Source: an uncultured Gammaproteobacteria bacterium (lineage in GTDB: Bacteria; Patescibacteriota; Microgenomatia; UBA12405; JAHJSD01). Taken from it: a stretch of DNA of 64,000 nt. The position numbers and the translations under genes are program-made. The notes below the pieces were generated by a model. It ran no database searches and was not told the origin of the DNA. It saw only the letters and a list, made by a program, of their open reading frames with translations. Shown piece by piece: positions 2,164 to 62,341 of this stretch (within the stretch, counting starts at the first letter, position 1; every line of letters begins with the position of its first letter). The stretch is from contig CAZCGQ010000002.1 of the NCBI GenBank assembly GCA_964498425.1, forward strand, positions 130,278 through 194,277, given 5' to 3'.

Positions 2164-2165
2164 TA

Positions 2166-12071: not shown

Positions 12072-12075
12072 AACA

Positions 12076-46622: not shown

Positions 46623-47311
46623 AAAGACAAGGCCCAGCTAAATAATAACATAAGTCCGCCCCCAATAACAGCAATCATTATCGGTGTTTCAATTCCGGTC
46701 TCGGGCAAACTGCTTGGCGTAGACGTTGGCTGATCCGGAGCAGTTGTACTCGTTGGAGCTGGGGTGTTGGTTGCCTCAGCCGGCGTATTTGTCGGTTGAG
46801 CTGACTCCCCAATAGTATAACTGCCGCTTCCACAAGCAGCGCAATCAATTAAGTCATTTCCTTGTTGATCCCAGATTGCCGAGTCAGTATCAACACCAGA
46901 CTCACAAAGGAATGATGTTGAGGCTGTTCCCTCAGCAGTAGCTTCAAAAGTTACCGTAGCAATATCTCCTTGACCGCTGTTGGTAACCAGAGCCTGCTCA
47001 GAAAAAAGATAAATTGTCAACTTCCCGTTATTATTTTCAATATTGTAATCAAACCCTGAAAAGAAATCCCCCTCAACTACTTCATTTACCTTAAGCCTAC
47101 TTTCATCAAAACTAATTAAGGCATCCGCTGCCATTGATTCTTTGTCCCCGGTATCAATTTTAACCAGGATATCAAAGGTTTCACCAACCTCATAATTCCC
47201 ACTTGATGGCTGAAAATACAACCTTGGACCAGCCTGAGCAAAAACTGTTCCCGCCTGCCACAGGCCGATGAAAAAGATTACGGTAAAGACTACCTTTCTA
47301 GCAATTTTCAT
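46619..47311 (-). CDS. Secreted cohesin-like beta-sandwich protein with an LPETG sortase anchor
   Basis: Signal peptide. A cohesin-like domain is present (YEVGETFDILVKID...GDIATVTFEA). After a Pro/Thr linker come LPETG plus a hydrophobic tail. Confidence 0.5.
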   Translation of the reverse strand: MKIARKVVFTVIFFIGLWQAGTVFAQAGPRLYFQPSSGNYEVGETFDILVKIDTGDKESMAADALISFDESRLKVNEVVEGDFFSGFDYNIENNNGKLTIYLFSEQALVTNSGQGDIATVTFEATAEGTASTSFLCESGVDTDSAIWDQQGNDLIDCAACGSGSYTIGESAQPTNTPAEATNTPAPTSTTAPDQPTSTPSSLPETGIETPIMIAVIGGGLMLLFSWALSL

Positions 47312-47892
47312 TTATTTATTCTAATCCTTAAATCCTCTTTAGTAAACGAATATTCCTTTCCTTGTCCGGCTAATACTGTTCCCCTTGCCTCACCCGGGTT
47401 ATAGATTACAAATTCCGTTCGTCCGGCTGCCAAAGGCTTATACTCTATTACTGCTAAGGATACCTCTTCCCCGGCTGTAATTTCAACCCCCTCCATTGTG
47501 CTTGGCTCAACCAGTGAAATTAAAACCCTTTTTTCTTCCGGTTCAATCCAGTTCCTAGCAGCATAGGAAAATTTCTCGCTGGGATCAATTCCCATAACTT
47601 CAACCATGTTCGGTTGATAATTAAGATAAACATCAACTCCATCCAGCATAATGGTTTCTTTCGCTGTTAAAACTACTTTCATTTGGCTAGTTTCCCCAAG
47701 ATTAACTGCTTCTTCCCCTTGCAAGCTAACTTCCGCCTCTGTCTGAAGTTGCGTCGACTGCGGAAGGGGCAATCTCTCTTTAACCTGAGCTTGATTAACT
47801 TGAGTATTTTTAACTACCAAAATACTCTCTAATATTATTAAAAGCGCTAAAACTGGTATCAACCATTTTACTTTTTCTAAATTAAATTTCAT
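47308..47892 (-). CDS. Secreted hypothetical protein, paralog of 53764-54345
   Basis: Signal anchor. It shares ~45% identity with the 53764-54345 product (…EPE.R.L.SLVE…GEARGTVLAG.GKEY.F..EDL.I). Confidence 0.45.
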   Translation of the reverse strand: MKFNLEKVKWLIPVLALLIILESILVVKNTQVNQAQVKERLPLPQSTQLQTEAEVSLQGEEAVNLGETSQMKVVLTAKETIMLDGVDVYLNYQPNMVEVMGIDPSEKFSYAARNWIEPEEKRVLISLVEPSTMEGVEITAGEEVSLAVIEYKPLAAGRTEFVIYNPGEARGTVLAGQGKEYSFTKEDLRIRINK

Positions 47893-48997
47893 CTTCGTAT
47901 TTTGTACTCAACGTACCCAGGAAAAAGGTAACATCCTGACCGTTAACAATACCGTTAAAATTAATATCTTCCGGAATATCTCCTTGAGTCATAAATGCCT
48001 GCTTTAAAGTTGTAAAGTCAGCACTGTTCACAACCCCATTTTGATCAATGTCGCCTGGCTCAAGGCGCAACCCGGTCCAGTCAAAATTATTATCACCGGC
48101 AGCTAAGGTAATATCTTCTTCACCCAGCCAACAATGTTCTGTCTGATCATCCTCGCAATACCGCCTAGCTAAATGTACTGGTCCTTTAATCAATATAGCA
48201 TATCCATCACTGGGTTCAACTCCAACCAACTCTAAACTCCCTGTTCCAATTGCTTCTTCATTAAATTCAACAGGGACATCTTCATACTTATATGTCGACC
48301 CCTCGCCCTTAACGACGAGGTCAACGAATCTTGTTCCGATATCATCAACAACCAATTCATGCTCATCAACCCGATATTCCGTACCAACAAATTTAATCTT
48401 AAAATTCATCTCCGGCCAACCTGTTGGCGGCTCGGTTGGTATCGGAGTCGGTTCCCCTGCACTAACACTTACTTCAGCCCCAGCAAAATCTGTAATATTC
48501 AAGACCCTGTCCCTCTCCCCTTCTAGTCCCCTCGCCCCAACAAAGGAAACTGCTCCCGTTCTATTTATTGTTGATGTTCCTTCTCCGACCAAATTAAAGG
48601 TTAAGGTGACTAAATTAAAAGTGTCTTCAATTGGTGTAACACCAGATTTTAGGTAAGCTACCGTTTCCACTACCCCACCTTGAGTGGTTTGAGACAAACC
48701 ATTAAATTCTTCACTTAAGCTTGAAGAGGCAAATTCCAAAACTGATGGGTCGTAACTTAAACTAAAATGTCCACCGCTGACTAAATTACCATCCGGCAAA
48801 ACTCTAACTTGTACGCTGGCAGTTTGGTCATCCAAATCAACGTTTTGACTGTCCGGTAACACTTGAACATTAATATTCCCATAGGCTGCTCTTCTTCTAA
48901 CTTCTTGCGTCTGTTGTACTAAGGCCAAAGAAGCAATAACTGCTATCAAGGGCAAAACAAAAAGCAAAGTTAGTAGTTTTCTTTTATATTTTTCCAT
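47882..48997 (-). CDS. Secreted cohesin-like module + C-terminal dockerin-like protein (paralog of 54329-55567)
   Basis: The C-terminus DIDQNGVVNSADFTTLKQAF...EDINFNGIVNGQDVTFFLGTL is a two-segment dockerin-like Ca-binding repeat. Start at ATG 48997. Confidence 0.5.
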   Translation of the reverse strand: MEKYKRKLLTLLFVLPLIAVIASLALVQQTQEVRRRAAYGNINVQVLPDSQNVDLDDQTASVQVRVLPDGNLVSGGHFSLSYDPSVLEFASSSLSEEFNGLSQTTQGGVVETVAYLKSGVTPIEDTFNLVTLTFNLVGEGTSTINRTGAVSFVGARGLEGERDRVLNITDFAGAEVSVSAGEPTPIPTEPPTGWPEMNFKIKFVGTEYRVDEHELVVDDIGTRFVDLVVKGEGSTYKYEDVPVEFNEEAIGTGSLELVGVEPSDGYAILIKGPVHLARRYCEDDQTEHCWLGEEDITLAAGDNNFDWTGLRLEPGDIDQNGVVNSADFTTLKQAFMTQGDIPEDINFNGIVNGQDVTFFLGTLSTKYEDEI

Positions 48998-48999
48998 TT

Positions 49000-50325
49000 T
49001 TAGAATTTGGGCAACTCCGAATACCACTGATTAACATCGCCTTCGTCCAACTGGCCGTTGCAGTTAAAGTCACCGTAAAGATAATTACTATTTAATTTAT
49101 AATCATCGTACCAACCGGCAAAGTCTTCCATATTTATCGTTCCGTCACAGTTATAATCCGCACTAGACTGAATATACCCTCCGTCCGGGCAAGGCTTACA
49201 GCCACTTGGTGCCTCCGTATTTGTCGGCTGAGGTGGCGTATCTGTATTTGTTGGTTGCGGCATATCTGTGTTCGTTGGCCGCGGGGACTCCGTTGGTCTA
49301 GTTGTACTGGTTGGCTCAGGGGTTACTGTTGGCGTTACTTCATCTACCTCAAATGTTGCCCCACTGGTATTAACCTGGTATTCACTCACATCACAACTCC
49401 CAGATTCTTGAACAGGTACACAGCCTGATGCCTCCGCGTTAGTGAAGTTTAATGTTCCTTGCCCATTAACCCTTACTTCAATTTCCGCTACTGTAAAAAC
49501 TCCCCAGGGCAGTTCTTGCCAAGGTGATGATTTGTTAGCCTGAATTACCAATTGCCCTCCCCCATAGTTAACATTCAATTCACTTGGTAAACCAACTAAA
49601 CTGACATCAACTACCTCTAAGTTAGAACCATAGTTTAATCTTAAGCTGGCAATATCAACTTTTTTCTGGCTGGAATCAATCATCAAATTGGCGTTAACCG
49701 TACCTCCAGATTGGCCAACCTGATAATTACCTGGTTCAAAATAAGCAACTATTTCATGTTGCTGGGGAGGGTTAGTTGGAATTGGAGAAGGAGTGCTGGT
49801 TGCTACTGGCTCCTGGCGTATTTCAAAACTCGCTCCTAATGTGCTAGTGCTGTGTGAAGTCACTGGGCAACTACTACCACTAGGATTACAACCATTAACC
49901 GTTGCACCGTCAAATCTAAGATTACCTCCGGAATTAACCCTTACCGTAATAGTCGCTACCGTAAAACTACCACTTGGCAGCTGCTGCCAATTTCCAGTTT
50001 TAACTGCCGTTATCTCAGCTTGGCCACCTCCAGAAGTTATACTCATCTGATTAGGTAAAGCCCCCAAACTAATATTTTCAATTTCTAGCCCGGAATCATA
50101 ACTTAAATTCAGGGAAACCAAATCAACCTTTTTTTGTCCAGAATCAGCTATTAACCTAACATTAACTGTTTCTCCGGAATTATTGACTGCGTAGGAGGAC
50201 TGGTTAAAACTCAAGTCTACGTCTGCGGCCGCTCCCCGTCTCGTTTCTTGACTTTGATTTACCAAGTAAATTCCACCCAATAAAGAAGTAATTAAAATAC
50301 CAATTAAAAAAACTTTTTTTATCAT
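49000..50325 (-). CDS. Secreted protein with two cohesin-like repeats, a Pro/Thr linker and a C-terminal Cys-containing dockerin-like module
   Basis: Two ~150-aa internal repeats (…LSYDSGLEIENISLGALP…GCNP / …LNYGSNLEVVDVSLVGLP…GCVP). The C-terminus carries DYNCDGTINMEDFAGWYDDY...GDFNCNGQLDEGDVNQWY. Confidence 0.5.
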   Translation of the reverse strand: MIKKVFLIGILITSLLGGIYLVNQSQETRRGAAADVDLSFNQSSYAVNNSGETVNVRLIADSGQKKVDLVSLNLSYDSGLEIENISLGALPNQMSITSGGGQAEITAVKTGNWQQLPSGSFTVATITVRVNSGGNLRFDGATVNGCNPSGSSCPVTSHSTSTLGASFEIRQEPVATSTPSPIPTNPPQQHEIVAYFEPGNYQVGQSGGTVNANLMIDSSQKKVDIASLRLNYGSNLEVVDVSLVGLPSELNVNYGGGQLVIQANKSSPWQELPWGVFTVAEIEVRVNGQGTLNFTNAEASGCVPVQESGSCDVSEYQVNTSGATFEVDEVTPTVTPEPTSTTRPTESPRPTNTDMPQPTNTDTPPQPTNTEAPSGCKPCPDGGYIQSSADYNCDGTINMEDFAGWYDDYKLNSNYLYGDFNCNGQLDEGDVNQWYSELPKF

Positions 50326-50374
50326 CTATATATATAAGTTAAAGATATCAGAAACATATCCTGGTTTCAATAAG

Positions 50375-50938
50375 TTACAAACCTAACATTCTTAAAAACC
50401 ATTTCATAATTTTACTCGTTATTCCTTGCCCGTTTGATCCAACTGTAATATTTACATCTTCCCCTGTTGTTGTTTCAAATCCGCTAACCTGGCAGTCATT
50501 TCCGTTAGGGATACAACCATTAGATTGGGTGGTATTAAATGATATATTTCCTGAAGATTTAGCCCCAACAGTTATTGTAGCCAAATCAAATTTACCGCTC
50601 GGGAGAGACTGCCAATTACTCATCTTTACCGCTTTAATACTTATCTTCCCACCACCGGTACTAACTCCAAGCTCATCTGGCAAATCACCTAAGTCTATAT
50701 CCTTAATTTCTAATCCAGAACTGTAATCCATTTCCACCAAAGCTAAATCAACTTTTTTTTTCCCTGCGTCAATTTTTACTTTTATGTCCACTGTTTCACC
50801 AACATCAATCTGGTAGTTGTTCTTTTCAAAATAAAAATTAACAGCACTTCCCCGAGAAAAAACCAATTTCGCGTTACCGAAGAAGAAAATCAAAAAAAAA
50901 AGAACAAAGGCAGATTTTTTTACCAACTGCTTAGTCAT
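50375..50938 (-). CDS. Secreted single cohesin-like module protein
   Basis: Signal anchor MTKQLVKKSAFVLFFLIFFF, then a module homologous to the repeats in 49000-50325 (…MDYSSGLEIKDIDLGDLP…GCIPNGNDC). Confidence 0.5.
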   Translation of the reverse strand: MTKQLVKKSAFVLFFLIFFFGNAKLVFSRGSAVNFYFEKNNYQIDVGETVDIKVKIDAGKKKVDLALVEMDYSSGLEIKDIDLGDLPDELGVSTGGGKISIKAVKMSNWQSLPSGKFDLATITVGAKSSGNISFNTTQSNGCIPNGNDCQVSGFETTTGEDVNITVGSNGQGITSKIMKWFLRMLGL

Positions 50939-53432
50939 AAAGAGCTGACCTCCAAACCGAGAAATCAATGTATTCAACAGTACCATTGCAGTTGGTATCT
51001 CCATAAACACTGTTACCGTTCCCTGTACACTGACCGGTATCCGATGCCGTCCCGTCAAACATAGCTGACCTCCAAGCAGAAAAATCTAGGTAATCAACAT
51101 CTCCATCACAATCGGCATCTCCAGTTACACACTCGCCTTCTTCCGGTGTATTCGTTGGATCAACTGGAGGCACCGGTGTATTTGTCGGGCCACCTGGTCC
51201 TGCCGGCGTATTCGTCGGTTGAACTGGCGGTACCGGCGTATTCGTCGGTAATGGCTGATCTGTTGGAATTGGCGAAGGTTCAATTTCATCCTCACAAGCC
51301 CTATCGGAACAACTATACCAACCACTTCCTGGATCCTCATCCCACCATTGACAGCCATATCTACACGCTCCAGTTACGCAATAACAACTCCTTTGACTGA
51401 CAGGCGTCGGTGTCGGCTCAATTTCTTCCTCGCAAGCACTGGCCGAACAACTAAACATATTCTCCATTGGCTCATCTGACCATACACAACCATAAGCACA
51501 TGCTCTAGTTACACAGTAACATTCTCTTTGACTAACCGGCGTTGGGGAAATTTCAGCATCACACGCACTATCCGAGCAACTGTACCAACCACTTCCTGGA
51601 TCCTCATCCCACCACTGACAACCATAACTGCAAGCTCCAGTTACGCAATAACAACTCCTTTGACTGACAGGCGTCGGTGTTGGTGAAGTTTCACATCTAC
51701 TATCAGGGCTACTATTCCAACAAATCTTTGTGTCTGCGTTTGGAGGTAAAAAGAAAATACCACACTGTAAATCTGGAAGACAATCTTCCTTCCCAGTGCA
51801 AGTATCCCCACAATCGCCGTCACCAGAATCTAACTCACAACAATAAGTTGTTGATTCCCCAGAAACTCCAATAACTCCTCCACAAGGCCTGTTATAATCA
51901 GTTCTTCCCGAACACTCTGACGGCAATGAACACTCCTCATCCGACGCACACTCCACAAAATCAATATACCCTGTTGGTGTTGGGGAAACCCTCACTCGGC
52001 AAACTCCAGGCATACCTTGACTCAAGTCACAATAACCAGAACAACAGTCAGAATTGGCCCCGCACTCCCCGCCATTATTTACACAACTAGATCGACAGAT
52101 TCCGGGCATTCCTTGGCTTAAATCACAATTGCCCGAACAGCATTCAGAATTTGCACCACATTCCCCGCCATTATTTACGCATCTTGGAGTTGGCGTTGGT
52201 TCCGGTCCACAATACCTATCCGCGCACGATCTCCAAAGCCCCCCTGGATTAGCTGTCCGCCATTCACAACTATTAAATACACTGCTGCAAATTCCTTGGC
52301 AATAACAATTCAAATCACCTGAGGGTGTTGGAGTTGCCGTAGGTACTATAGTTGGGGTTGGATAAGGAAGACAGCAATACTTATAACCCCCTGGAGTAAC
52401 TCCACACTTTTTACCTCTTAAAACTGTTCCTCCACAGTTAGCCGGCGGTACACAAGCCTCATCAACATCACAACTAACAAAATCCTCCTCAGTTTCACAT
52501 CCACAACCACCGCCTACTGGAACACAATTTTCACCACTTGGGCAACTACCTAAGCAAACATTCCCATCAGGAGTAAGTTCCATATGACAACTCTCTGACG
52601 CCGGCGTTGCAGTCGGCTGAGGTCCGCAATAACAGCTCGTCCCTTGGCAATAATAGCTATTACAACAATCACTGCAGTTAGCTCTCGACGTTCCGTCTGA
52701 CGTTTCACAGGCTGTACCATCACGTTCACAAACTGAACAATTTCTGACACATTCTTCTCTAGTAATAAAATTGCCATTGGGATCAGCTACACAAGTTCCA
52801 CTCATCGTACATCGATAATTTGGCTCTGGAGTAGAAGTTGCCGTTGGTACTCTCGTTGGAGTTGGTTCAGAAACACAGCAATATTTATAACCACCTGGAA
52901 TAACTCCACATTTCTTATTGTATCTAACTAATCCTCCACAATTATCCGCTGGAACACAAACCTCATCGGCATCACAAGTAACAACTCCGCCCGGCGGCGT
53001 TGGAGCAACACAACCTCGACCGTCTATACAAGTACTATCTCCTGGACAACCATAACAAACAAGTTGGCCTCCGTAATTGACACAATGCCCGTTAGCTCCA
53101 CAACAATCACCCTCGGATTTACCGGAACAATCTGTACTTGGTCTTGGTGTAGCAGTAGGTGCTGATGTTGGATCGGGATTTTTACAGCAAATTTCGCCAA
53201 TCGGGCAAGTTCCAGAAGCATTTTCTAACCCAAAATCCGAACATCTAGCTGACCCAGGCCCCCCAGATTTACAAATCGGGCAAGTATAAGCAGCGCCGCG
53301 GCGGGTTTCTTGCTGCTGCTGTACAAGCCTTAAAGCCGCCGGCAAAGCAACTCCAATTAAAAGCAAACCAATAATAATCGGAATATTGGCCGCTCCGCGC
53401 TGAGAAAAATTATTTTTTAACTTTTTTAACAT
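50931..53432 (-). CDS. Large secreted Cys-rich repeat protein (833 aa) with a C-terminal dockerin-like module
   Basis: Signal anchor. It contains about 100 Cys in repeated knot-like units: 3x CYCVTGAC.YGC.W.DEDPGSGWYSCSD.AC, 2x VNNGGECGANS.CCSG.CDLSQGMPG.CR, and 2x KKCGV.PGGYKYCC. The C-terminus carries DADCDGDVDYLDFSAWRSAMFD...GDTNCNGTVEYIDFSVWRSALYD. Confidence 0.5.
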   Translation of the reverse strand: MLKKLKNNFSQRGAANIPIIIGLLLIGVALPAALRLVQQQQETRRGAAYTCPICKSGGPGSARCSDFGLENASGTCPIGEICCKNPDPTSAPTATPRPSTDCSGKSEGDCCGANGHCVNYGGQLVCYGCPGDSTCIDGRGCVAPTPPGGVVTCDADEVCVPADNCGGLVRYNKKCGVIPGGYKYCCVSEPTPTRVPTATSTPEPNYRCTMSGTCVADPNGNFITREECVRNCSVCERDGTACETSDGTSRANCSDCCNSYYCQGTSCYCGPQPTATPASESCHMELTPDGNVCLGSCPSGENCVPVGGGCGCETEEDFVSCDVDEACVPPANCGGTVLRGKKCGVTPGGYKYCCLPYPTPTIVPTATPTPSGDLNCYCQGICSSVFNSCEWRTANPGGLWRSCADRYCGPEPTPTPRCVNNGGECGANSECCSGNCDLSQGMPGICRSSCVNNGGECGANSDCCSGYCDLSQGMPGVCRVRVSPTPTGYIDFVECASDEECSLPSECSGRTDYNRPCGGVIGVSGESTTYCCELDSGDGDCGDTCTGKEDCLPDLQCGIFFLPPNADTKICWNSSPDSRCETSPTPTPVSQRSCYCVTGACSYGCQWWDEDPGSGWYSCSDSACDAEISPTPVSQRECYCVTRACAYGCVWSDEPMENMFSCSASACEEEIEPTPTPVSQRSCYCVTGACRYGCQWWDEDPGSGWYSCSDRACEDEIEPSPIPTDQPLPTNTPVPPVQPTNTPAGPGGPTNTPVPPVDPTNTPEEGECVTGDADCDGDVDYLDFSAWRSAMFDGTASDTGQCTGNGNSVYGDTNCNGTVEYIDFSVWRSALYD

Positions 53433-53447
53433 TATATTTGTATGTGT

Positions 53448-53690
53448 TTACTGACAGCAGTAGGGCTTATCCGAAGGACAATCTCCCTTGTTCCACCTCA
53501 TATTAATTTCATGACAAAACTGAGCTTTACATGTTGTTTGACAAGGATAGCCAAAGGTTGGCATTTGGTTTCCAGCCGCCCCTTTTCGAGTTTCTTGACT
53601 TTGCTTAACTAGCTGTAAAACGCCAATCAAAGCAAGAAGGACAAAAAAAATGGCTAGAAGGCTTAAAATTTTTCGTTTGTTTTGTTCCAT
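53448..53690 (-). CDS. Small secreted Cys-rich protein (80 aa)
   Basis: Signal anchor plus a C-terminal 6-Cys segment (GYPCQTTCKAQFCHEINMRWNKGDCPSDKPYCCQ). Confidence 0.4.
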   Translation of the reverse strand: MEQNKRKILSLLAIFFVLLALIGVLQLVKQSQETRKGAAGNQMPTFGYPCQTTCKAQFCHEINMRWNKGDCPSDKPYCCQ

Positions 53691-53763
53691 AAAGGCTGGT
53701 AAAAATCGTAACTATCCTCACTCTAGACCATAACGTATCTTTTTGTCAAGAATCAGTTCTTAA

Positions 53764-54345
53764 TTACTCGACGCTGATAGTTAAGTCTTCAGTAATAAAA
53801 TCATATTCTTTCCCCTTGCCAGCTAAAACCGTACCCCTTGCCTCTCCAGCTTTATAAATCTCTACATCAACCTTTCCATCTAAAATCGCTTGATAGGTAA
53901 TATCGGCTAAAATTAATTTTTGGCCTTTCTCTAAATTTACTTGACCATTTTCTTGAGTCTCAACTAATGATAATAAGATTCGTTCGTTTTCTGGTTCAAT
54001 CCAATTCCGTCCAACAACAGAAAATTCCGTTGTCGGCTTAACAGTTAAAATTTCAAGGCCGGCGGAATCATAACGAAGGTATACGTCTGCTCCATCTAAG
54101 ATTAATTCTTCCTCGGCAGATAAAACTACTTTAACGTTTTCAACCTCTCCCCTCCTTACCTGGCTGTTACCAATCAAATTAATCTTGGCTGCGTAATTTA
54201 AATTATCATCAACTTGAACCGAAGTTTCCGAGGCCACTTCTTTCTTCCTAACTGCCATCAATTTGACGATAAAAACACTCTCAAAAATAACTAGCAAAGA
54301 TAGGACTGGAATTATCCAAACTCTCTTTTTAAAGGTCATCTTCAT
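53764..54345 (-). CDS. Secreted hypothetical protein, paralog of 47308-47892
   Basis: See 47308-47892. Confidence 0.45.
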   Translation of the reverse strand: MKMTFKKRVWIIPVLSLLVIFESVFIVKLMAVRKKEVASETSVQVDDNLNYAAKINLIGNSQVRRGEVENVKVVLSAEEELILDGADVYLRYDSAGLEILTVKPTTEFSVVGRNWIEPENERILLSLVETQENGQVNLEKGQKLILADITYQAILDGKVDVEIYKAGEARGTVLAGKGKEYDFITEDLTISVE

Positions 54346-55567
54346 ATTTTGTGCTTAAAGTATTTAGGAAAAAAGTAATATCCTGACCGTTAACAATCCC
54401 ATTAAAATTAATATCCTCCTCAACGTCCCCCTCCAACTTTAAAGCCTCTTTCAATAAAGTAAAGTCAGCGCTGTTGACAACTCCGTTTTTGTCAATGTCC
54501 CCTGGCTCCAAGTTAATTTCTGTCCAATCAAAGCTATTTTCACCGCTATCTAAGGTTATTTCTTCTTCACCAAGCCAACAATGTTCCCTTTGGTCATCCT
54601 TACAAAATCGCTTGGCTAGATGCACCGGGCCTTTAACCAATACTGCATAACCGCTTCCCGGCTCAACTCCAGTTAAATCTATTGAACCAGTTCCAATTGC
54701 TTGATTATTAAATTCAACTGGAACGTCCTCATATTCAAAACTCTCCCCATTACCCTTAACCCAAACGTCGACTAACCGGGTACCAATGGTATCCACTGTC
54801 TTCATCACCCCGCCTACCCGATACTCTGTTCCTTCAAACTTAATTTTAAAAGTTAACTCCGGCCATCCACCTTCCGGTTCTCCTGTCGGAGTTGCCGTTA
54901 CCACCGGTATTGGCGTACTGGTAGCCTCAGGGTCTGGCGTGTTAGTTGCCCCAGACGGCGGAGTATTTGTTGCCACTGGAGTTTCTGTCGGGACTAACTC
55001 CGATACAACCGTTATCGTTGATCTATCAAAACTACTCATTGATAACTGCCGGTCAATATTACCCTCCTGACCTCTAGACCCGGTAATTACATAATCCTCA
55101 GTCCTGTTAATATCAGCTACACCCGTCTGCTTTGCTTCAAAAGTCAAAGTTGCAATTTGAAAAGGCTCATTATTTAATCGCTCTAATTCATCCCGAGCCA
55201 TTGTCGTCAATGCCGTAAACTCAACCCTTCCTCCAGCAGAAGAGTCAGACCCGGTAAATCCATTACGAACAGCAACATCAACAAACTCTAATACATCCTC
55301 ATCGTAATCCAGAGTCATTTTTACTAAATTAACCAAATTCGGTCCAGGATTAACCATAACTTGTAGGTTAACCTGTTCACCGACTTCCACTATTTTTTCA
55401 TCTGGCAAAATTGAAACGGCAACATTGCCGTAAGCAGCTTGACGTCTAGTTTCTTGGCGCTGTTGAACCAAATAAATTGCCCCAAAGAGGCCAAAAATTA
55501 AACTAAAAAAGATAAACCAGTTTTTATTACCTGTATTCGTCATACCATTGGGCAAAATCCTGCTCAT
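54329..55567 (-). CDS. Secreted cohesin-like module + dockerin-like protein (paralog of 47882-48997). The real start may be the internal Met at 55543.
   Basis: C-terminus GDIDKNGVVNSADFTLLKEALKLEGDVEEDINFNGIVNGQDITFFLNTL, plus a Thr/Pro linker. Confidence 0.5.
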   Translation of the reverse strand: MSRILPNGMTNTGNKNWFIFFSLIFGLFGAIYLVQQRQETRRQAAYGNVAVSILPDEKIVEVGEQVNLQVMVNPGPNLVNLVKMTLDYDEDVLEFVDVAVRNGFTGSDSSAGGRVEFTALTTMARDELERLNNEPFQIATLTFEAKQTGVADINRTEDYVITGSRGQEGNIDRQLSMSSFDRSTITVVSELVPTETPVATNTPPSGATNTPDPEATSTPIPVVTATPTGEPEGGWPELTFKIKFEGTEYRVGGVMKTVDTIGTRLVDVWVKGNGESFEYEDVPVEFNNQAIGTGSIDLTGVEPGSGYAVLVKGPVHLAKRFCKDDQREHCWLGEEEITLDSGENSFDWTEINLEPGDIDKNGVVNSADFTLLKEALKLEGDVEEDINFNGIVNGQDITFFLNTLSTKYEDDL

Positions 55568-57611
55568 TAACTATATCATCACAATTAAAGTCAGCGTAAA
55601 GCAAATTACTTCCGCTTCTAAAATCATCATACCAACCAGCAAAGTCCAATTCATTAACTTGACCATTACAATCATAATCAGCTCTTGAACCAACCTTTGT
55701 CCCATTTGGACAAGGCTTACAACCCTGAGGCGGAGTATTTACCGGCAAAGTTGGTGTCCCTTCCGGTTCCCGACACCGTTCAACTATTTCTTGACAATTA
55801 TTGTTCTCATTAACTTCATCAACTTGATCTCGGCTATCAATACAAACCTCAATTGTGTCACTCTGGCCAGAGCATTCCTCATAAAAACTATAAATGCCAA
55901 TATCAAAACTGCGGATATTCCCATTAGCCGGAACATCGATTTCCCCTTTGTCGTTTCCATCAACGGTTAAACTTGCCTTAACCGTTTGAATATCCTCAAT
56001 CTCCTTACCTTCGTTAACTGAATGCAAATATACCTTACCTGAAACATTTCCCTCCATCCCACCTAGCCAAACATTTTTCAGGCTTAATTCCGGCTTATCA
56101 CCAAAATAAAAACTGGCCTGGTTCCTGAAATCAGTTAAGGGAATATTTATTGGGGTACAGCCATCACAAGGATTTGGCTTGGGAACACAGGCTTCTATTT
56201 GGCCGCTCTGGAAGCGAATCGACCCTTCTTGATTAACCTTAACCTCCAAACTACCTGCCTTAAAACGAGTTCGTGGAAACCTTTGCCAAACTGATGGGTG
56301 TTTTGCTGTTAAATTGAGATTAATAGCTCCACCACTGATACTAATATTACTATCATGACCGAAATCATTTCCATAACGCGCCTCAACCTCTAAACCCGAA
56401 TCGTAAGAGAACTGCATCCTCAACCGCTTAACCGGCAAACCGGCATATTCGCCTCTCCCGTCAATGTAAAACCGAGCATCATCGCTAACATCTCCAGCTT
56501 TCTGTACAACAAAGGTATCATCATTAAAAAAGCCCCATATATCCTCCTGAACGGGTTCCTCTTGATAACAATTTTCCATGCAAGCATCGAAATCCTCTGC
56601 CATTCCCGGCCGGCCGTCACAATCAAAATCAATCATCTGTTTAACAACCTCAGCACAATCCTCTGACAAAATTACTTCATCCTCGTTGGGAACTCGACTA
56701 CAATCATTTGGCACACAATCCGGTGGGGTTGTCGGTACCGGTTGGTCTTGATGCGGAGTAGAGGTTGGAGCTGATTTGTCACAACAACAGTTACCACTAC
56801 CACAGCCATAGTCCCCATCTAAACAATTGGCAAACCGAAAACATAAATAGGTTGGCTCACATTCACAATCCGGACAAACCGCGCTGCATTCAGCAGAAAC
56901 TATCGGCGTACTGGTCGGATTAGGTTGGCAGTCACAGTTATTATCTTCCGGACAGTCAGGATTACGGCAATATTTACGGTTACCGATAATCGGAATTGCT
57001 TGAGCGGTAGAATCGCCTAAAACCACCTCTGAATCAGCCTCTTCAACAGTCGGCTGCCAGCAAATCAAATCCCCAGCACAACCATTATTATCGAGACAAA
57101 CATCATTACAACCTCCACCTGGCAAAGCTGGCGTATTAGTTGGGTTGCTTGAGGAATTAGCTTGACATTGTTTATTACTATTAGACCAACATCTGCTGGA
57201 CCCACAATCACACCCTGGAGTTAAAACCTGTGCACATTGCATACTAGGATCAGTAGCATAGGCACAACTATCAACACAAGAATTAGGAAACTCTCTCCAA
57301 CTCCCACCACTTGCTAAACAAAGCTCTCTATTAGTTGGAGTATTTGTCGGCAGCTGACTGCCACCTGGGCCAGCCGGGGTATTTGTTGGCAAACTTCCAC
57401 CCGGAGGCAATTCCCCCATCCCTACCTCACTTCCAACCTTAGTTGCCGCTTGTCGCCTTACTTCCTGTTGTTCTTGAACCAACTGTAAACCGGCAAAAAG
57501 TGAAGCCCCAATAAGAACCAAGCTGATAACTAAAATAATCTGGCTGTTTCCTCGTTCCACAAAGTTTCTCACTCTTGCTTCAAGATAATCCATTTCAACC
57601 TCTTTTGTCAA
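55527..57611 (-). CDS. Large secreted Cys-rich protein (694 aa) with a cohesin-like module and a C-terminal Cys-containing dockerin-like module
   Basis: Signal anchor. The N-terminal half is Cys-rich. The central region resembles the cohesin-like repeats (…MQFSYDSGLEVEARYGN…IEACVPKPNPCDGC). The C-terminus carries DYDCNGQVNELDFAGWYDDF...ADFNCDDIVNEQDFAQWYDEY. Confidence 0.5.
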   Translation of the reverse strand: MTKEVEMDYLEARVRNFVERGNSQIILVISLVLIGASLFAGLQLVQEQQEVRRQAATKVGSEVGMGELPPGGSLPTNTPAGPGGSQLPTNTPTNRELCLASGGSWREFPNSCVDSCAYATDPSMQCAQVLTPGCDCGSSRCWSNSNKQCQANSSSNPTNTPALPGGGCNDVCLDNNGCAGDLICWQPTVEEADSEVVLGDSTAQAIPIIGNRKYCRNPDCPEDNNCDCQPNPTSTPIVSAECSAVCPDCECEPTYLCFRFANCLDGDYGCGSGNCCCDKSAPTSTPHQDQPVPTTPPDCVPNDCSRVPNEDEVILSEDCAEVVKQMIDFDCDGRPGMAEDFDACMENCYQEEPVQEDIWGFFNDDTFVVQKAGDVSDDARFYIDGRGEYAGLPVKRLRMQFSYDSGLEVEARYGNDFGHDSNISISGGAINLNLTAKHPSVWQRFPRTRFKAGSLEVKVNQEGSIRFQSGQIEACVPKPNPCDGCTPINIPLTDFRNQASFYFGDKPELSLKNVWLGGMEGNVSGKVYLHSVNEGKEIEDIQTVKASLTVDGNDKGEIDVPANGNIRSFDIGIYSFYEECSGQSDTIEVCIDSRDQVDEVNENNNCQEIVERCREPEGTPTLPVNTPPQGCKPCPNGTKVGSRADYDCNGQVNELDFAGWYDDFRSGSNLLYADFNCDDIVNEQDFAQWYDEYR

Positions 57612-58215
57612 GAACTAGGGAAGTTATCTCCCGCTTAATTAGTCCCCCCGCTAATCTTATTCCTCTTAAAATTAATTTTAAATCATAAGCCAAACACTTC
57701 TTGTCAACATAGTTAATATCCAACTCCATCCATTTATTAAAGGGACTGTCATGATAGCCGTTAAAAAGCCAGGGCGAAATAATTCCCGGCTTAGCTTCTT
57801 CACGTTTTTTCTGCCAATCCTTAAGTTGATTTGCCTCCTTAACCGGTAGCGGCCGCGGGCCAACAATGCTCATTTCCCCTTTGATGATGTTGATTAACTG
57901 CGGCAGTTCATCTAAACCGGTGTGAGCCAGAAATCTGCCAATCTTGGTATATCTTGGGTCTTTTTTAATCTTAAACACCGGCCCGTCAGCCTCATTGAGA
58001 TGCTCAAATTTCTTCTGATCATTATCAGCGCCAGGGTACATTGTCCGAAACTTAAATAAATCAAATACTTCTCCCTTCTCCCCTACTCTCTGCTGTTTAA
58101 ACAAAATTGGCCAACCGCCGCCCAAAAACAAGATAAACAAAGAAATAATCCCCAAAACAGGCAAAAATAAAAGAAAAAAGGCAATGGTTATAAATACTTC
58201 TACTCCTCTTGGCAT
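57595..58215 (-). CDS. Polyprenyl-phosphate sugar phosphotransferase (Bac_transf family; PglC/WbaP-C-terminal-like initiating transferase)
   Basis: N-terminal TM, then KQQRVGEKGEVFDLFKFRTM...DELPQLINIIKGEMSIVGPRP. Start at ATG 58215. Confidence 0.75.
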   Translation of the reverse strand: MPRGVEVFITIAFFLLFLPVLGIISLFILFLGGGWPILFKQQRVGEKGEVFDLFKFRTMYPGADNDQKKFEHLNEADGPVFKIKKDPRYTKIGRFLAHTGLDELPQLINIIKGEMSIVGPRPLPVKEANQLKDWQKKREEAKPGIISPWLFNGYHDSPFNKWMELDINYVDKKCLAYDLKLILRGIRLAGGLIKREITSLVLDKRG

Positions 58216-58238
58216 AATTTGTATACTATTATATAGAT

Positions 58239-60191
58239 ATGAAAAAACCAAGCCAATGGGCAGTCTACTTTTTTTTCGCAATTAATTTCGTCCTTAGTTT
58301 GCTTGACCAGGGAGCCCTCCTCCCCTACCTGATTATTTTACAACTGCCCTTTTTACTTGTTTTGTTCATAAAAAAAGAAAAACTTTCATTACCACTGCTC
58401 AAACCAATCATCCTTGTCACTATTGTCTTCATAATAAACTTTTTTACCTCTGCTAATAAGCAATTTACCTTTGAAAGAATTCTCATTTGGCTGACCACCT
58501 TTTTAGTCTTCTGGATTTTTTATAATTTAAATTTCCAGACTAAAGATAAAAAGTTGTTTATTAACCTCCTAATCTATACTTCCCTTCTCTTAATTCCTTT
58601 CTTTCTCTACTACCGAATAACCCACACCGTTATTCACACTTCCGCCTTGTCAATGATCCAACCAATGACCGGCCACGTCCATATATCTTCCCTATTTTTG
58701 CTCAGCCTAACCGCCAGCTTTTTAACCAAACGCCACCTTATTTCTCTCATTTTGCTCATCAGTCTGGCGGCAACCAACTCTGTTTCCTCCTTTTTCGCTT
58801 TATTTTTAGGCAGTCTTTTGCTCATTACTATTCCCAATAAACTAGTTAAGCCCAAAATTAAAATAGTCACTATAAGCATCGCTATCGTCATTTTTACAAC
58901 ACTTCTAGCCCTTAGCTCTAAAACTCCTAAAGCCTTGGACAGTATTGACCCTCTTTGGGCCAAAAAAACGCTTGGTGGGGCTAGAATTCACTACTGGGAG
59001 CAGGCATTTAAAGGCTTTATAGCCCGACCAATTACCGGCTGGGGGTTGGATACTTCAGGCATCGTCTCCCAAAAATTCATGAATGATGGCTACTATTCTC
59101 TTTATCCCCACGGTTTTCTCTTTAAAATTTTAGCCGAAACAGGATTAATTGGGTTAATGGCTTTCAGTTATTTAGTTATTCTACTAACTAAATCGGTTTC
59201 CTTAAAAAGTAAGGAAAATATAATTATTGCTAGCATAATTATTATTTCAGCTCTTGAATCTTTAACTGACTTTGGCTGGCAGTTTCCCTCAATAATGTTT
59301 ATTCTAGCTGGCAGCCTAGGTATTATTGTAAAAAAAGCTGAGATCGCTAAAACTAAAACAACTACTCTTCTTATGATTAGTCTATTACTGGCAATAATCT
59401 CAACCGGCCTAGTAGCATCCACCCATTTTAAAAGACAGGGGAAATATGACCTTGCCCAAATTTTCTATCCACTCGACCAGGAAATTTATGTAGAAAATTA
59501 TGAAATTATTAACCCAAAAATAACGCACTTTTTCTTCGGCCAGGACCCAAATTTTTGGGGCAAAATGGCTTACAAATATCAACAAAACGATGAACTTGAT
59601 AAAGAGATTAATGCTCGGGAAAAAGAACTTGCAAAGCTTAAACCTAGTTTCTCTCAAAGAAAAAAGCAAGAATTAATTAGTTTGTACCTTAAAAATAATC
59701 AAGAAAAAGAAGCAACTAACACTATTTTTGAAAGAATCTGGGCACCTATTAAAACTAGCGAAAAAACTGTGACATTTACTAATCAGGAAAAAAATATCAT
59801 TGATCAATTAATAAAAAATAATAAAGGCCTAATTTTTTCACAAATTAATAAAATTAGTAAACAAATTGATATACAAGAAAAGCCTCAGCTTTTTTACACT
59901 CAGCTTTTTTATCAATTAGGTTTAGAGCTATATAATGAAAATCAACCTAAAAGTACAGAAATTTTATGGAAAAAAATTACAAAAATAAATCCTCAATGGA
60001 GCCACTTTCACATTGAGCTTGCCAACTTGTATTGGGAAAAGGGAGAGAAAAAAAAAGCTGTAAATCAACTCGAAGAGATTTGTTCCCAATACAACTCTCC
60101 CCGAAAACACTGTTTAAATTACTTAAAAGACTACCCTTACTTTCAAAAGCCAGGTAGTTTAGAAAATCAAATTCCAATATTTACTCCTTAA
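58239..60191 (+). CDS. O-antigen ligase/Wzy_C-like polytopic membrane protein (possible PglL-type O-oligosaccharyltransferase) with a C-terminal soluble TPR-like domain
   Basis: About 12 TM helices with a large periplasmic-loop region (WAKKTLGGARIHYWEQAFKGF). The ~230-aa C-terminal domain is helical and repeat-like. Confidence 0.5.
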   Translation: MKKPSQWAVYFFFAINFVLSLLDQGALLPYLIILQLPFLLVLFIKKEKLSLPLLKPIILVTIVFIINFFTSANKQFTFERILIWLTTFLVFWIFYNLNFQTKDKKLFINLLIYTSLLLIPFFLYYRITHTVIHTSALSMIQPMTGHVHISSLFLLSLTASFLTKRHLISLILLISLAATNSVSSFFALFLGSLLLITIPNKLVKPKIKIVTISIAIVIFTTLLALSSKTPKALDSIDPLWAKKTLGGARIHYWEQAFKGFIARPITGWGLDTSGIVSQKFMNDGYYSLYPHGFLFKILAETGLIGLMAFSYLVILLTKSVSLKSKENIIIASIIIISALESLTDFGWQFPSIMFILAGSLGIIVKKAEIAKTKTTTLLMISLLLAIISTGLVASTHFKRQGKYDLAQIFYPLDQEIYVENYEIINPKITHFFFGQDPNFWGKMAYKYQQNDELDKEINAREKELAKLKPSFSQRKKQELISLYLKNNQEKEATNTIFERIWAPIKTSEKTVTFTNQEKNIIDQLIKNNKGLIFSQINKISKQIDIQEKPQLFYTQLFYQLGLELYNENQPKSTEILWKKITKINPQWSHFHIELANLYWEKGEKKKAVNQLEEICSQYNSPRKHCLNYLKDYPYFQKPGSLENQIPIFTP

Positions 60192-60370
60192 AATAAAGTA
60201 TAAATAAATGGAGCAACCGGAGAAGTTTCTGCAAGAATAAATAAGATTCCAAAGATAAACAAAAAAATTACGATTGGAACTAGCCACCACTTTTTATTCA
60301 CCATAAGAAATTTTAAAAAATCCCCCATTATTCCTAGTTTCGAAACAATATCCCTAATTATTTTCTTCAT
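60188..60370 (-). CDS. Small membrane protein (60 aa) downstream of the carbamoyltransferase
   Basis: Single TM (WWLVPIVIFLFIFGILFILA). Small proteins of this type often accompany NodU/CmcH-type carbamoyltransferases. Confidence 0.3.
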   Translation of the reverse strand: MKKIIRDIVSKLGIMGDFLKFLMVNKKWWLVPIVIFLFIFGILFILAETSPVAPFIYTLF

Positions 60371-62076
60371 TTTTTTATAACAAAATTTTGTAAAACCAAA
60401 ACATCAATGCCTGTATTTACATAACAATTATAAGCATTTTCAGGTGTATTGACAATAGGCTCCCCTCTGATGTTAAAGGAAGTATTTAAAACCACTGGAC
60501 AACCAGTTAAATCATAAAAAGATTTAATCAAATGATAATACTTCTCGTTTTGTTTTTGATTTACCGTTTGTATCCGAGAAGAACCATTCTCGTGAGTTAC
60601 TGCTGGGATTTTTTTCCGACCTTGTTTGGTTTGAACCACCTTAAGCATAAACGGTGACCGGTCACCAGGAATAAAATATTCATCCGCCTTATCTTCTAAA
60701 ACTGATGGAGCAAAAGGCCGAAATGGTTCCCTGTGCTTCACCTTAGCATTCATAATGTCCTTCATTTCTGGATTCCTCGAGTCAGCAATCAGCGTCCGGT
60801 TGCCCAATGCCCGAGGCCCCCATTCCATCCTATCCTGATACCAAGCAACTACTTTTTGATCAGCAATAAGTCTAGCTACAACTTTAGTTAGTTTTTCAAT
60901 ATTTTCAAAGTATTCATAGCTGACCTTGTTGTCATCTAGAAACTGTCGAATTTCGTCATTAGAATAACTTGGACCGTAAAAAACCTCATCCATTGTAAAT
61001 TCTCTTTTCTTGTCAAGCAAAGAATTATATATATAGAAGGCAGTACCTAAAGCTCCACCTGCATCGCCGGCGGCCGGCTGAATATATAAATTTTCAAATG
61101 AAGTCTGGGGAATAATCTTCCCATTAGCAGCACTATTTAAGGCTACTCCCCCGGCCATGCATAAATTTTTCAATTTAGTTTCTTGATATAAACCTTCTAT
61201 CATTTTAAGTATTACCTCCTCCGTCACCTTTTGAATACTTGCAGCAACATCCCTGTAATGCTGAGGAAAAGTCTCACTTTTTTGCTTTAAAGGCGGTTGA
61301 TTATCAAAAAGTTTGATAAACTTCTGATTAATAGACTTTAAGCCATACTCATATGAAAAATATTTCATGTTTAATTGAAAAGCGCCGTCATTATTTATTT
61401 CAATTAAATTATCCTTTATTACTTTCTCATACTTTGGTTCACCATAAGGAGCTAAGCCCATCATTTTATACTCGCCATTATTTATTCGAAATCCGCAGTA
61501 GTAAGTAAAAGCAGAATACAGCAAGCCAAGAGAATGTGGAAAATTTATTGATTTATTTAATTCAATTTTGTTACCCTTCCCAACACCCTTAGTTGCTGTC
61601 TCCCACTCCCCTACTCCATCTAAAGTTAAGATAGCTGCCTCTTGAAAAGGAGAAACTAAAAATGAACTTGCGGCATGTGACAAATGATGTTTCAAAAAAA
61701 CGATATCTTTATCCCAACCTAATTCCTTTTGAATAATATTTTTAATCCACAGCTTTTCTTTAAACCAAATTGGCATAGCCTGACGAAAAGAGTTGAAGCC
61801 CTTTGGCACTGTTTTTAAATAAGTTTCCAAAATCCGTTCAAATTTTAAAAAAGGTTTTTCATAAAAGCCAACATAATCCAAATCACTAGAGGTTATGCCT
61901 GCCTCTTTAAGACAATATTTAATTGCCCCTTTAGGAAATGAAGCATCATGCTTCTTGCGTGAAAATCTTTCTTCAGCAACAGCAGCCACTAATTGCCCAT
62001 CTTTAACTAATGCAGCTGCCGAATCATGGTAAAAGCAGGAAAGGCCTAATATATAAGTTGGTTTAACATTGTTCAT
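60367..62076 (-). CDS. Carbamoyltransferase (NodU/CmcH/NovN family)
   Basis: N-terminus YILGLSCFYHDSAAALVKDGQLVAAVAEERFSRKKHD plus a C-terminal YrdC/Kae1-like carbamoyltransferase domain. 569 aa. Confidence 0.85.
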   Translation of the reverse strand: MNNVKPTYILGLSCFYHDSAAALVKDGQLVAAVAEERFSRKKHDASFPKGAIKYCLKEAGITSSDLDYVGFYEKPFLKFERILETYLKTVPKGFNSFRQAMPIWFKEKLWIKNIIQKELGWDKDIVFLKHHLSHAASSFLVSPFQEAAILTLDGVGEWETATKGVGKGNKIELNKSINFPHSLGLLYSAFTYYCGFRINNGEYKMMGLAPYGEPKYEKVIKDNLIEINNDGAFQLNMKYFSYEYGLKSINQKFIKLFDNQPPLKQKSETFPQHYRDVAASIQKVTEEVILKMIEGLYQETKLKNLCMAGGVALNSAANGKIIPQTSFENLYIQPAAGDAGGALGTAFYIYNSLLDKKREFTMDEVFYGPSYSNDEIRQFLDDNKVSYEYFENIEKLTKVVARLIADQKVVAWYQDRMEWGPRALGNRTLIADSRNPEMKDIMNAKVKHREPFRPFAPSVLEDKADEYFIPGDRSPFMLKVVQTKQGRKKIPAVTHENGSSRIQTVNQKQNEKYYHLIKSFYDLTGCPVVLNTSFNIRGEPIVNTPENAYNCYVNTGIDVLVLQNFVIKK

Positions 62077-62281: not shown

Positions 62282-62341
62282 TATAGTAATATGTAATCAC
62301 TAGAAAATTAATTATATCAAATTAATAAGAGAAACAAATTT

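Follow-up and report, generated by a model that had tools for sequence, protein, structure and literature searches.

A cysteine-rich module array with a dockerin-like tail in a cohesin–dockerin gene cluster: a candidate hypervariable recognition protein

Genes and modules of the locus

The window analyzed here is a 64,000-nucleotide (nt) stretch of contig CAZCGQ010000002.1, and this report deals with one of its genes, 50931-53432 on the reverse (-) strand, and with the cluster in which it lies. The 833-residue (aa) product of this open reading frame (ORF), hereafter A833, contains 96 Cys, that is 11.5% of its residues, in a window whose 58 likely ORFs have a median Cys content of 0.46%; A833 and a second protein of 694 aa together carry 56% of all the Cys encoded there. 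Both had been singled out by an earlier sequence-only reading of the same DNA, which put the Cys frequency of A833 at about one residue in eight, as the count bears out. A protein identical to A833 is on record in NCBI.

The two genes belong to a cluster of eleven genes on one strand, each overlapping or abutting the next between 57611 and 45990, and all of them encode exported products with cohesin and/or dockerin modules. The gene overlaps, which range from 4 to 41 nt, point to a single operon. Two scaffold genes (412 and 193 aa) lie between the two Cys-rich genes, and six more follow the A833 gene (45990-50938). The genes and domains around A833 are as follows:

55527-57611 (-): 694-aa protein, 43 Cys (6.2%) (ORF)
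56568-57320 (-): Cys-rich modules of the 694-aa protein
56097-56546 (-): cohesin-like module of the 694-aa protein (hhalign probability 97.5%)
55791-56027 (-): CARDB domain of the 694-aa protein (Pfam, 2.8e-7)
55530-55727 (-): dockerin of the 694-aa protein, 'GCKPCP' type (weak Pfam match)
54329-55567 (-): 412-aa protein, cohesin and type I dockerin (Pfam)
53764-54345 (-): 193-aa membrane-tethered cohesin-like protein (hhalign)
53448-53690 (-): 80-aa ORF, leader (helix and QETRKGAA) and one free-standing alpha module at 53451-53549 (module profile)
50375-50938 (-): single-cohesin protein (Pfam/NCBIfam)
49000-50325 (-): 441-aa protein, two cohesin-like modules and a dockerin (Pfam/NCBIfam)
47882-49027 (-): 381-aa protein, cohesin and dockerin (Pfam/NCBIfam)
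47308-47892 (-): 194-aa cohesin protein (Pfam/NCBIfam)
46619-47311 (-): 230-aa cohesin protein with an LPETG wall-anchor motif (Pfam/NCBIfam)
45990-46622 (-): 210-aa fn3-like protein (Pfam/NCBIfam)
53289-53432, 53570-53690, 55420-55567, 57440-57611, 50220-50325 and 48880-49027 (-): sites encoding a shared leader

A833 itself consists of a leader, about 16 mini-modules of eight sequence types, most of them with six Cys, a Pro/Thr linker and a dockerin-like tail. The module types, which were delimited by local profile hidden Markov models, are 30-43 residues long; alpha and beta/CYC are each present in four copies, gamma in two, and theta, eta, zeta, delta and epsilon in one. In N- to C-terminal order, the gene encodes:

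50931-53432 (-): whole A833 gene, with leader, about 16 mini-modules, Pro/Thr linker and dockerin-like tail (ORF; no whole-protein Pfam or NCBIfam match)
53289-53432 (-): leader, residues 1-48, hydrophobic helix then LVQQQQETRRGAA (kept at 98-100% in relatives with other bodies)
53175-53288 (-): alpha copy 1, residues 49-86, 6 Cys, C..C..C..C..CC (module profile)
53004-53132 (-): theta, residues 101-143, 8 Cys (module profile; protein P0009 holds copies at 55% identity)
52866-52982 (-): alpha copy 2 (KKCGV..GGYKYCC), residues 151-189 (copy used for the AlphaFold2 model)
52620-52817 (-): eta and zeta, residues 206-271, jointly 12 Cys (Cys clusters; zeta kept in homologue P0002)
52491-52592 (-): delta, residues 281-314, 6 Cys (Cys clusters, module profile)
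52365-52478 (-): alpha copy 3, residues 319-356 (DNA repeat at 78%, module profile)
52203-52313 (-): divergent fourth beta/CYC copy, residues 374-410 (module alignment/profile)
51993-52184 (-): two tandem gamma units, putatively knottin-like, CVNNGGECGANS.CCSG.CDLSQGMPG.CR, residues 417-480 (417-448 and 449-480; DNA repeat at 80%)
51831-51956 (-): alpha copy 4, residues 493-534 (module alignment/profile)
51687-51815 (-): epsilon, residues 540-582, 6 Cys (Cys clusters, module profile)
51288-51659 (-): three tandem beta/CYC units (CYCVTGAC.YGC.W...), residues 592-626, 636-669 and 681-715, aromatic-rich and acidic
51138-51287 (-): long Pro/Thr linker, residues 716-765, 30-nt period (PTNTPVPPV.) (Tandem Repeats Finder, 51143-51249)
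50934-51137 (-): dockerin-like tail, 68 aa, two Ca-loop/helix halves DADCDGDVDYLDF and DTNCNGTVEYIDF (internal DNA repeat, profiles)

Of the repeated units picked out in the sequence-only reading, the two CVNNGGEC/CCSG units stand as the gamma pair. Its three CYC copies were all found, but the divergent fourth copy at residues 374-410 had been missed; likewise, its two KKCGV..GGYKYCC units are present but belong to the six-Cys alpha module, which occurs four times in A833 and once more in the 80-aa ORF.

The Cys of A833 fall into 13 clusters separated by Pro/Thr linkers, and the number of Cys is even in all 13 (in order, 6, 8, 6, 12, 12, 6, 12, 12, 6, 6, 6, 2 and 2). In the alpha alignment, whose mean column identity is 30%, the six Cys are the sole invariant columns; in the beta/CYC alignment the six Cys columns show little or no variation, and one Tyr and one Trp are invariant. 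The even counts and the invariant columns suggest that each bead would be closed by its own internal disulfides, and together with the linkers they agree with the small disulfide-type modules proposed earlier, which would each fold on their own. The epsilon module appears, as judged by eye from the sequence, to have a related unit with a long insert in the 694-aa protein.

These same features bear on the possibility that A833 is a metal-binding or redox-buffering thiol protein, built as metallothionein-like or zinc-ribbon arrays. Its high Cys content and a few CxxC pairs, e.g. CPIC at residues 51-54, would suit such a protein, but metallothioneins reach roughly 30% Cys, the spacing of the Cys is fixed and their number even in each module, the mature protein holds two His, the framework of the gamma units matches disulfide knots, and the protein is exported and ends in a dockerin-like module. 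We regard this explanation as extremely unlikely, and for the metal binding considered in the sequence-only reading, a His/Cys type finds no support in so few His.

The dockerin-like nature of the tail, also proposed in that reading, is supported by the sequence comparisons. Its halves DADCDGDVDYLDFSAWR and DTNCNGTVEYIDFSVWR follow the dockerin type I pattern of two EF-hand-like segments of about 22 residues, each made of a Ca loop and a helix. The isolated tail scored 19.5 bits (E=0.0011) against Pfam Dockerin_1 (PF00404), below the 22.9-bit cut-off, and a profile built from six tails retrieved solved dockerins from the PDB (5lxv_B at E=5e-5, then 1daq, 2mte, 5nrm and 2vn5), most of the matches being dockerins. 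The 694-aa protein does have the Cys-rich half and the cohesin-like module (residues 356-505) ascribed to it; the CARDB domain and the dockerin had not been listed. Its cohesin-like module was recognized by profile comparison: the 694-aa protein gave no Pfam match to PF00963, but this module and its paralogues in two neighbors aligned with the Pfam-supported cohesins of the cluster at an hhalign probability of 97.5% (E=8e-12), and its best PDB matches were Ruminococcus scaffoldin cohesins (E of about 1e-3).

Part of the cluster arose as a segmental duplication, the 694-, 412- and 193-aa genes paralleling the 441-, 381- and 194-aa genes (53764-57611 versus 47882-50325) with an nt identity of about 72%. 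Over their 3'-terminal 540 nt, the 381- and 412-aa genes agree at 72% of positions, the 'GCKPCP' dockerins of the two copies are alike, and the Cys-rich N-terminal half of the first duplicated gene is present in one copy only. Promoter and terminator scans gave counts not clearly above those of shuffled controls, and no glycoside hydrolase was found in the cluster.

What the modules resemble and how the repeats have evolved

A833 as a whole matched nothing in Pfam, NCBIfam, PHROGs or PADLOC. Twenty single-module Pfam queries at E<=10 returned only sub-threshold knottin families, and these from gamma-type units only; EGF, TNFR, granulin, pacifastin and hevein families were not matched by the modules in these queries or in NCBIfam. 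A check for a known abundant family of the EGF/TNFR type, as suggested in the sequence-only reading, thus came back empty, and of the fold analogies offered there knottin suits the gamma units whereas EGF, granulin and TNFR are unmatched.

The gamma units, arranged as a tandem pair, have the Cys spacing C-x6-C-x5-CC-x3-C-x9-C, which fits the C-C-CC-C-C framework of knottins with short loops. All their scores against Pfam knottin families were under the cut-offs, the best being 16.7 bits, and the gamma-like unit of a related contig (L012) reached 24.1 bits for a 25-bit cut-off with Toxin_29. When a gamma profile was compared with PDB sequences, about 20 of the 24 matches were inhibitor cystine knot (ICK) peptides, the best two at E values of 5e-4 and 1e-3. 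The gamma units therefore look knottin-like, at marginal significance. They resemble the ICK peptides of spider and cone-snail venoms and of plant and insect antifungals in this framework and in typical loop lengths (PDB E values of 5e-4 to 0.05), but differ from them in being bacterial, acidic, arranged in tandem within a large surface protein and under the Pfam gathering thresholds.

Such likenesses raise the possibility that A833 is a docked, multi-headed protease inhibitor whose beads are canonical-loop inhibitors that shield the scaffold or block host proteases. Clostridium thermocellum has dockerin-bearing serpins, and the gamma units match ICK families. Furthermore, inhibitors are commonly built from small Cys-rich domains in tandem (SCREPs, PMC6262176), and pacifastin-like six-Cys domains have been reported by structure search in the candidate phyla radiation (CPR) (PMC13388995). 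However, Kazal, pacifastin, squash, WAP and antistasin families were all unmatched even at E<=10, the pacifastin Cys pattern is absent from A833, and the wholesale replacement of module types described below would be unusual for a housekeeping protective inhibitor. We consider this explanation unlikely.

For the alpha module, an AlphaFold2 model of copy 2 (based on 12 paralogous sequences; mean pLDDT 89.2, pTM 0.63) has three beta strands, at residues 9-13, 20-30 and 33-39. Foldseek found no significant match to this model in the PDB or BFVD (best E=6.3); the comparison with hBD4 gave E=6.8 and a TM score of 0.30. In an hhalign comparison with a set of beta-defensin sequences, the six Cys fell in register at a probability of 6.4%, the controls giving 1.1% and 0.07%. 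There was no Pfam match at E<=10, and no PDB sequence-profile relative. The model thus suggests a beta-defensin-like Cys framework and strand order, without demonstrated homology: like beta-defensins (the trans-defensin fold), alpha has a six-Cys framework and three strands on which the Cys are similarly placed in the model, and unlike them it is not cationic. Homology to beta-defensins was considered and rejected, as nothing supports it beyond the common Cys framework. As for CYC, its AlphaFold2 model was of low confidence (pLDDT 65.9) and a search with this unreliable model gave no match; the PDB matches of the CYC profile were chance hits to T-cell receptors. Most A833 modules fit no Pfam, NCBIfam or PDB family and apparently represent several unclassified mini-domain types.

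The resemblance of gamma and alpha to toxins and defensins also suggested a polyprotein precursor, the linkers of which would be cut (e.g. after PTPVSQR) to release knottin- or defensin-like toxins or antimicrobial peptides. Besides the ICK-like framework of gamma and the beta-defensin-like Cys spacing and strand order of alpha, the sequence VSQR precedes each of the three CYC units, and a free-standing single-module gene adjoins. Against this, the modules are neutral to strongly acidic (the alpha copies range from -6 to +1), and mature A833 has a pI of 4.1 and a net charge of -62; the QR site is not kept in the homologues P0002 or P0004; a dockerin at the C terminus speaks for a protein kept on the scaffold rather than released; and the defensin homology of alpha is unsupported. 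Acidity, dockerin and scarcity of His argue together against both this precursor and the metal-binding or thiol protein considered above. A toxin polyprotein is very unlikely in our opinion, and the cationic toxin or antimicrobial role envisaged in the sequence-only reading is disfavored by the charge. The acidity of the protein and the aromatic residues of the CYC beads (6 Trp, Tyr or Phe per 35 residues) would fit ligand binding better than membrane attack.

The repeats are also visible in the DNA. The first and third CYC copies (51271-51425 versus 51538-51692) are 86% identical over 155 nt and 90% identical over a core of 135 nt, the gamma pair (51996-52088 versus 52092-52184) is 80% identical, two alpha copies (52324-52480 versus 52828-52984) are 78% identical and the dockerin halves (50934-51010 versus 51054-51130) 74% identical. 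Tandem Repeats Finder reports a 132-nt period with about three copies. Identity to the adjoining copies falls to 67% for the CYC copy in the middle. The near-identity noted in the sequence-only reading is thus an overstatement for repeats that span 74-90% (67% for the middle CYC copy), and no DNA-level repeats were found in the 694-aa gene, for which they had also been claimed.

That reading had taken the repeats to be recent or homogenized; their divergence indicates otherwise. Between CYC copies 1 and 3 the synonymous divergence (dS) is 0.51 and the nonsynonymous divergence (dN) 0.06, for a dN/dS ratio of 0.12, and the gamma pair encodes peptides that are 84% identical (dN 0.086) although its synonymous sites are saturated (proportion of synonymous differences, pS, 0.78). 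Of the mismatches, 15 out of 22 in the CYC pair and 17 out of 19 in the gamma pair lie at the third codon position, a bias that confirms the reading frame. As the mismatches are mainly at third positions and dN/dS is low, the copies are mostly old and maintained by purifying selection on the protein. Only an exact run of 47 nt common to CYC copies 1 and 3 (51367-51413 and 51634-51680) hints at, and is compatible with, local gene conversion.

Upstream of the cluster (57595-63934) lie genes for a Bac_transf sugar-phosphate transferase, a Wzy_C membrane protein (of the O-antigen-ligase/O-oligosaccharyltransferase type), a carbamoyltransferase, a DUF5989 protein and a GDSL acylhydrolase. In contig L002, the homologue P0004 likewise has a remnant of Bac_transf upstream of it. 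The Pro/Thr linkers may be O-glycosylated by the products of such glycosylation-type genes.

Selection on the beads also bears on a simpler explanation, namely that the array is an inert, rigid, protease-resistant stalk whose variability reflects weak constraint or evasion of phages or predators. A string of beads on Pro/Thr linkers, possibly glycosylated given the genes directly upstream, without any recognizable binding domain, would suit a stalk, and rigidity is one suggested role of high Cys content (PMC4736985). However, purifying selection acts on non-Cys positions, as seen in the gamma pair, the aromatic residues of the CYC beads are conserved, and the free-standing alpha mini-protein is 95-96% conserved in relatives as compared to 67-86% for its neighbors. 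An inert stalk is, in our estimation, an improbable account of the array.

A variable array in a conserved locus

A833 has few relatives. A phmmer search with residues 49-716 against 1.84 billion representative proteins gave 9 matches at E<=1e-3, the query included, and a word-index search of 5.8 billion clusters gave three other proteins. Among GTDB species representatives there was no true relative, only matches to the gamma region at 29% identity in unrelated organisms; a viral scan and a first metagenome scan gave no match, and a profile of a 41-aa module recovered only a fragment of an 80-aa ortholog in the word-index search. Of the more distant relatives, P0002 (from JGI) is collinear with A833 over zeta-delta-alpha and epsilon-beta, with an ortholog of the 80-aa gene directly upstream and a CARDB protein downstream. 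Two others, P0004 (from a 'Patescibacteria group bacterium') and one encoded on contig L020, share the plan of leader, Cys modules and dockerin but have different module sets. The C-terminal part of an 890-aa subtilase (P0011) carries gamma-like four-Cys units and alpha-type C..C..C..C..CC units on Pro/Thr linkers, so that the same mini-modules occur attached to enzymes in other organisms.

The locus itself was recovered on seven contigs from other samples (L007-L013), which are 79-86% identical to the window at the nt level over the 412-, 193- and 80-aa genes and the start of the A833 gene, for 48-55 codons. Beyond this, homology ends abruptly, at window position 53268 or 53286. The related populations are those of JGI 3300017990, 3300017992, 3300018065 and 3300028840 and of ENA ERZ27256773/80/91. 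Protein identities between these relatives and the window are:

412-aa gene: 84-86%
193-aa gene: 67-75%
80-aa gene: 95-96%
A833 leader: 98-100%

In L001 and L006-L013 the gene immediately preceding the Cys-rich one is an ortholog of the 80-aa gene, and the earlier description of this ORF as a six-Cys mini-protein is correct. Past the leader, L007 has a diverged first alpha followed by a 'CCC-end' module, which resembles by eye one in the 694-aa protein, and L012 begins with a module of the 'CCC-end' type and also has a gamma-like unit and others. The Cys array is thus the hypervariable part of an otherwise conserved locus, a feature that the sequence-only reading had missed. The simplest reading of these comparisons is that modules would be replaced by recombination. 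A diversity-generating retroelement was considered as the source of the variability and rejected, the repeat mismatches showing no adenine bias and no reverse transcriptase being present among the scanned ORFs of the window.

The leader is not specific to A833. Six cluster proteins start with a hydrophobic helix followed by a near-fixed L-V-x-Q-x-Q-E-T/V-R-R/K-x-A-A motif, and in relatives (L001, L002 and L016-L020) the same leader precedes unrelated passengers, namely cohesins, a GH39 enzyme and Cys-rich bodies of other kinds. The signal models of NCBIfam and Pfam did not match this leader, which has the appearance of a signal for export, anchoring or processing peculiar to the lineage. Toward its N terminus (Q-K/R-G-x-x-Q/N-L/I-P) it bears a loose likeness to pilins, without the usual Glu. 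Residues 1-52 of the 80-aa protein gave a weak match (E=0.0028) to PHROG 31430, a family of no known function; the match probably reflects helix composition, although the phage family may have a similar leader.

The repeats had been flagged in the sequence-only reading as an assembly hazard, and they are one. All seven related metagenome contigs break inside repeated Cys modules, as does a Logan contig from SRR15425351, which is 100% identical to window positions 51651-56112, i.e. over A833 residues 1-594, and ends within the 47-nt repeat of CYC copies 1 and 3. Another Logan contig picks up only at about 50765, inside the downstream gene. Residues 1-594 are therefore corroborated; for the 3'-terminal 720 nt of the gene and the number of CYC copies, this assembly is the only source. 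Contigs L006 and L007-L013 stop 80-240 residues into the orthologous Cys-rich gene, at repeated modules; one such module, CTKPNYCDSVLSCPDCKSGDYDCASGQCCC, is present twice in L012.

An artefact, whether a repeat region that is chimeric or collapsed or a stretch that encodes no protein, would be consistent with the exact 47-nt repeat in the CYC array, with the breaks of independent contigs there and with the lack of independent support for 50765-51650. It is nevertheless almost negligible as an explanation, since an independent contig is identical over residues 1-594, the third-position bias confirms the frame, collinear homologues exist in other samples, and the uninterrupted ORF ends in a proper dockerin with diverged halves. 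Note that a gene that repeatedly breaks metagenome assemblies probably belongs to a class that is systematically cut short in short-read metagenomes and under-counted in protein databases, which may account in part for there being no more than 9 matches.

Proposed function and relation to known systems

We propose that A833 is a scaffold-docked, disulfide-braced, hypervariable recognition or adhesion array, an interpretation to which we give a probability of about one half. A833 would be an exported cargo of a cohesin–dockerin surface scaffold in a Patescibacteria-type (CPR) bacterium. The conserved leader would carry it across the membrane or anchor it there; the roughly 16 beads on Pro/Thr linkers would each be braced, probably, by three or four internal disulfides; and the C-terminal dockerin-like module would attach A833 to a cohesin-like module of one of its neighbors, which together encode roughly nine, in a scaffold anchored to the wall via the LPETG protein. 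The bead array would then form the exposed, variable end, its beads kept by selection and the bead set swapped between related populations. It is this combination of conserved single beads and swapped sets that suggests a multivalent array for recognition of, or attachment to, a host surface or another external ligand. The architecture, the kinship with cohesins and dockerins, the rarity, the selection on the repeats and the hypervariability follow from the comparisons above; the disulfides, the display on the scaffold and the binding are inferred.

Several observations weigh against this proposal. In single-module Pfam scans and PDB profile searches, the modules gave no match to any known family of adhesins or carbohydrate-binding domains, and the 64-kb window contains no CxxC disulfide oxidoreductase, VKOR or sortase. 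The LPETG protein is devoid of a positively charged tail and its anchor matches are sub-threshold. The leader may keep A833 anchored in the membrane, in which case docking would be redundant. The Patescibacteria label is taken from the relative P0004, not from the sequence of the window. Finally, the genes of the relatives are cut by contig ends, so that module replacement is visible only in the first 80-190 residues past the leader.

Elsewhere in the window, an exported 263-aa thioredoxin-like protein (19034-19825, +; VSR_TRX at 3.7e-7 and a weak Thioredoxin_4 match; 3% Cys, no CxxC) is the one candidate oxidoreductase and may be a degenerate DsbA-like protein. Three consecutive genes of the GH130 (beta-1,4-mannooligosaccharide phosphorylase) family, the first with a long N-terminal extension, lie at 10212-13984 (+). 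Two secretion ATPases of the T2SSE/PilB-PilT type (1108-3911, -), of which one contains an MshEN domain, probably belong to a type IV pilus, a further surface-contact system of the same genome. Within 25060-28000, a tyrosine recombinase (Phage_integrase) gene adjoins the stretch of lowest GC content (26001-28000, 0.316, versus about 0.40 elsewhere), and the final 2 kb of the window is AT-rich (GC 0.277).

Several parts of the proposed system have known counterparts. Peribacteria of the CPR encode large, very Cys-rich extracellular proteins that vary between strains and for which a role in attachment has been proposed (Anantharaman et al. 2016, PMC4736985). A833 shares with them a CPR-type small-genome host, export, high Cys content, genomic clustering and variation between related populations, a likeness of description in which the host label comes from P0004. 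However, the Peribacteria proteins average 1,655 aa, have a Cys content of about 7% and weakly resemble Myxococcus Cys-rich repeats and FG-GAP, whereas A833 has 11.5% Cys, discrete modules of 30-43 aa, Pro/Thr linkers, a dockerin and a cohesin operon. CPR genomes have been reported to encode DsbA/MdbA-like oxidoreductases and VKOR (bioRxiv 10.1101/335083), and surface adhesins are essential in epibiotic Saccharibacteria (PMC11665869).

The cluster resembles the cellulosomes of Clostridium thermocellum and Ruminococcus flavefaciens in its duplicated Ca-loop dockerin, multiple cohesin scaffold proteins, Pro/Thr linkers, adaptor proteins bearing both cohesin and dockerin, and putatively wall-anchored terminal cohesin; indeed, the top PDB matches of its modules are R. 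flavefaciens cohesins and dockerins. It departs from them in its cargo, which consists of Cys-rich bead arrays, CARDB and an fn3-like module with no glycoside hydrolase, in dockerins that are Cys-flanked and below the Pfam threshold, in a putative LPETG rather than SLH anchor, and in the unusual 'QETRR' leader of most members. A833 also has the architecture of the secreted cysteine-rich repeat proteins, or SCREPs (Maxwell et al. 2018, PMC6262176), in which small disulfide-rich domains stand in tandem behind an export signal; these form a descriptive class rather than a homologous family. The SCREP survey lists bacterial examples, and 98% of its entries have InterPro-recognized domains (PMC6262176). 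By contrast, most A833 modules have no recognized domain, and dockerin docking is foreign to the class.

Variable Cys-rich CPR surface proteins, cohesin–dockerin display and tandem small disulfide-rich domains are thus already known. We found in the searchable literature neither the architecture of A833 nor its unclassified module types, including the confidently modelled alpha, nor knottin-like units on a bacterial scaffold, nor so sharp a boundary between a conserved leader and a variable body.

A further-reaching interpretation is that the locus is a combinatorial display, in which a conserved leader and dockerin frame shuffled mini-domains, some of them true relatives of animal knottins and beta-defensins, that set which host cells an episymbiotic CPR bacterium can attach to. 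We consider it quite unlikely; if true, it would amount to a cassette-type host-range determinant on a cellulosome-like scaffold, and would mean that defensin and knottin scaffolds existed in bacteria.

For the way in which ultra-small Patescibacteria recognize and hold their hosts, the A833 locus is a concrete, testable candidate, the composition of the array changing between relatives while the leader, the scaffold genes and the partner mini-protein stay fixed. Knottin-like units in a bacterial surface protein would, in addition, bear on the origin of small disulfide-rich scaffolds.

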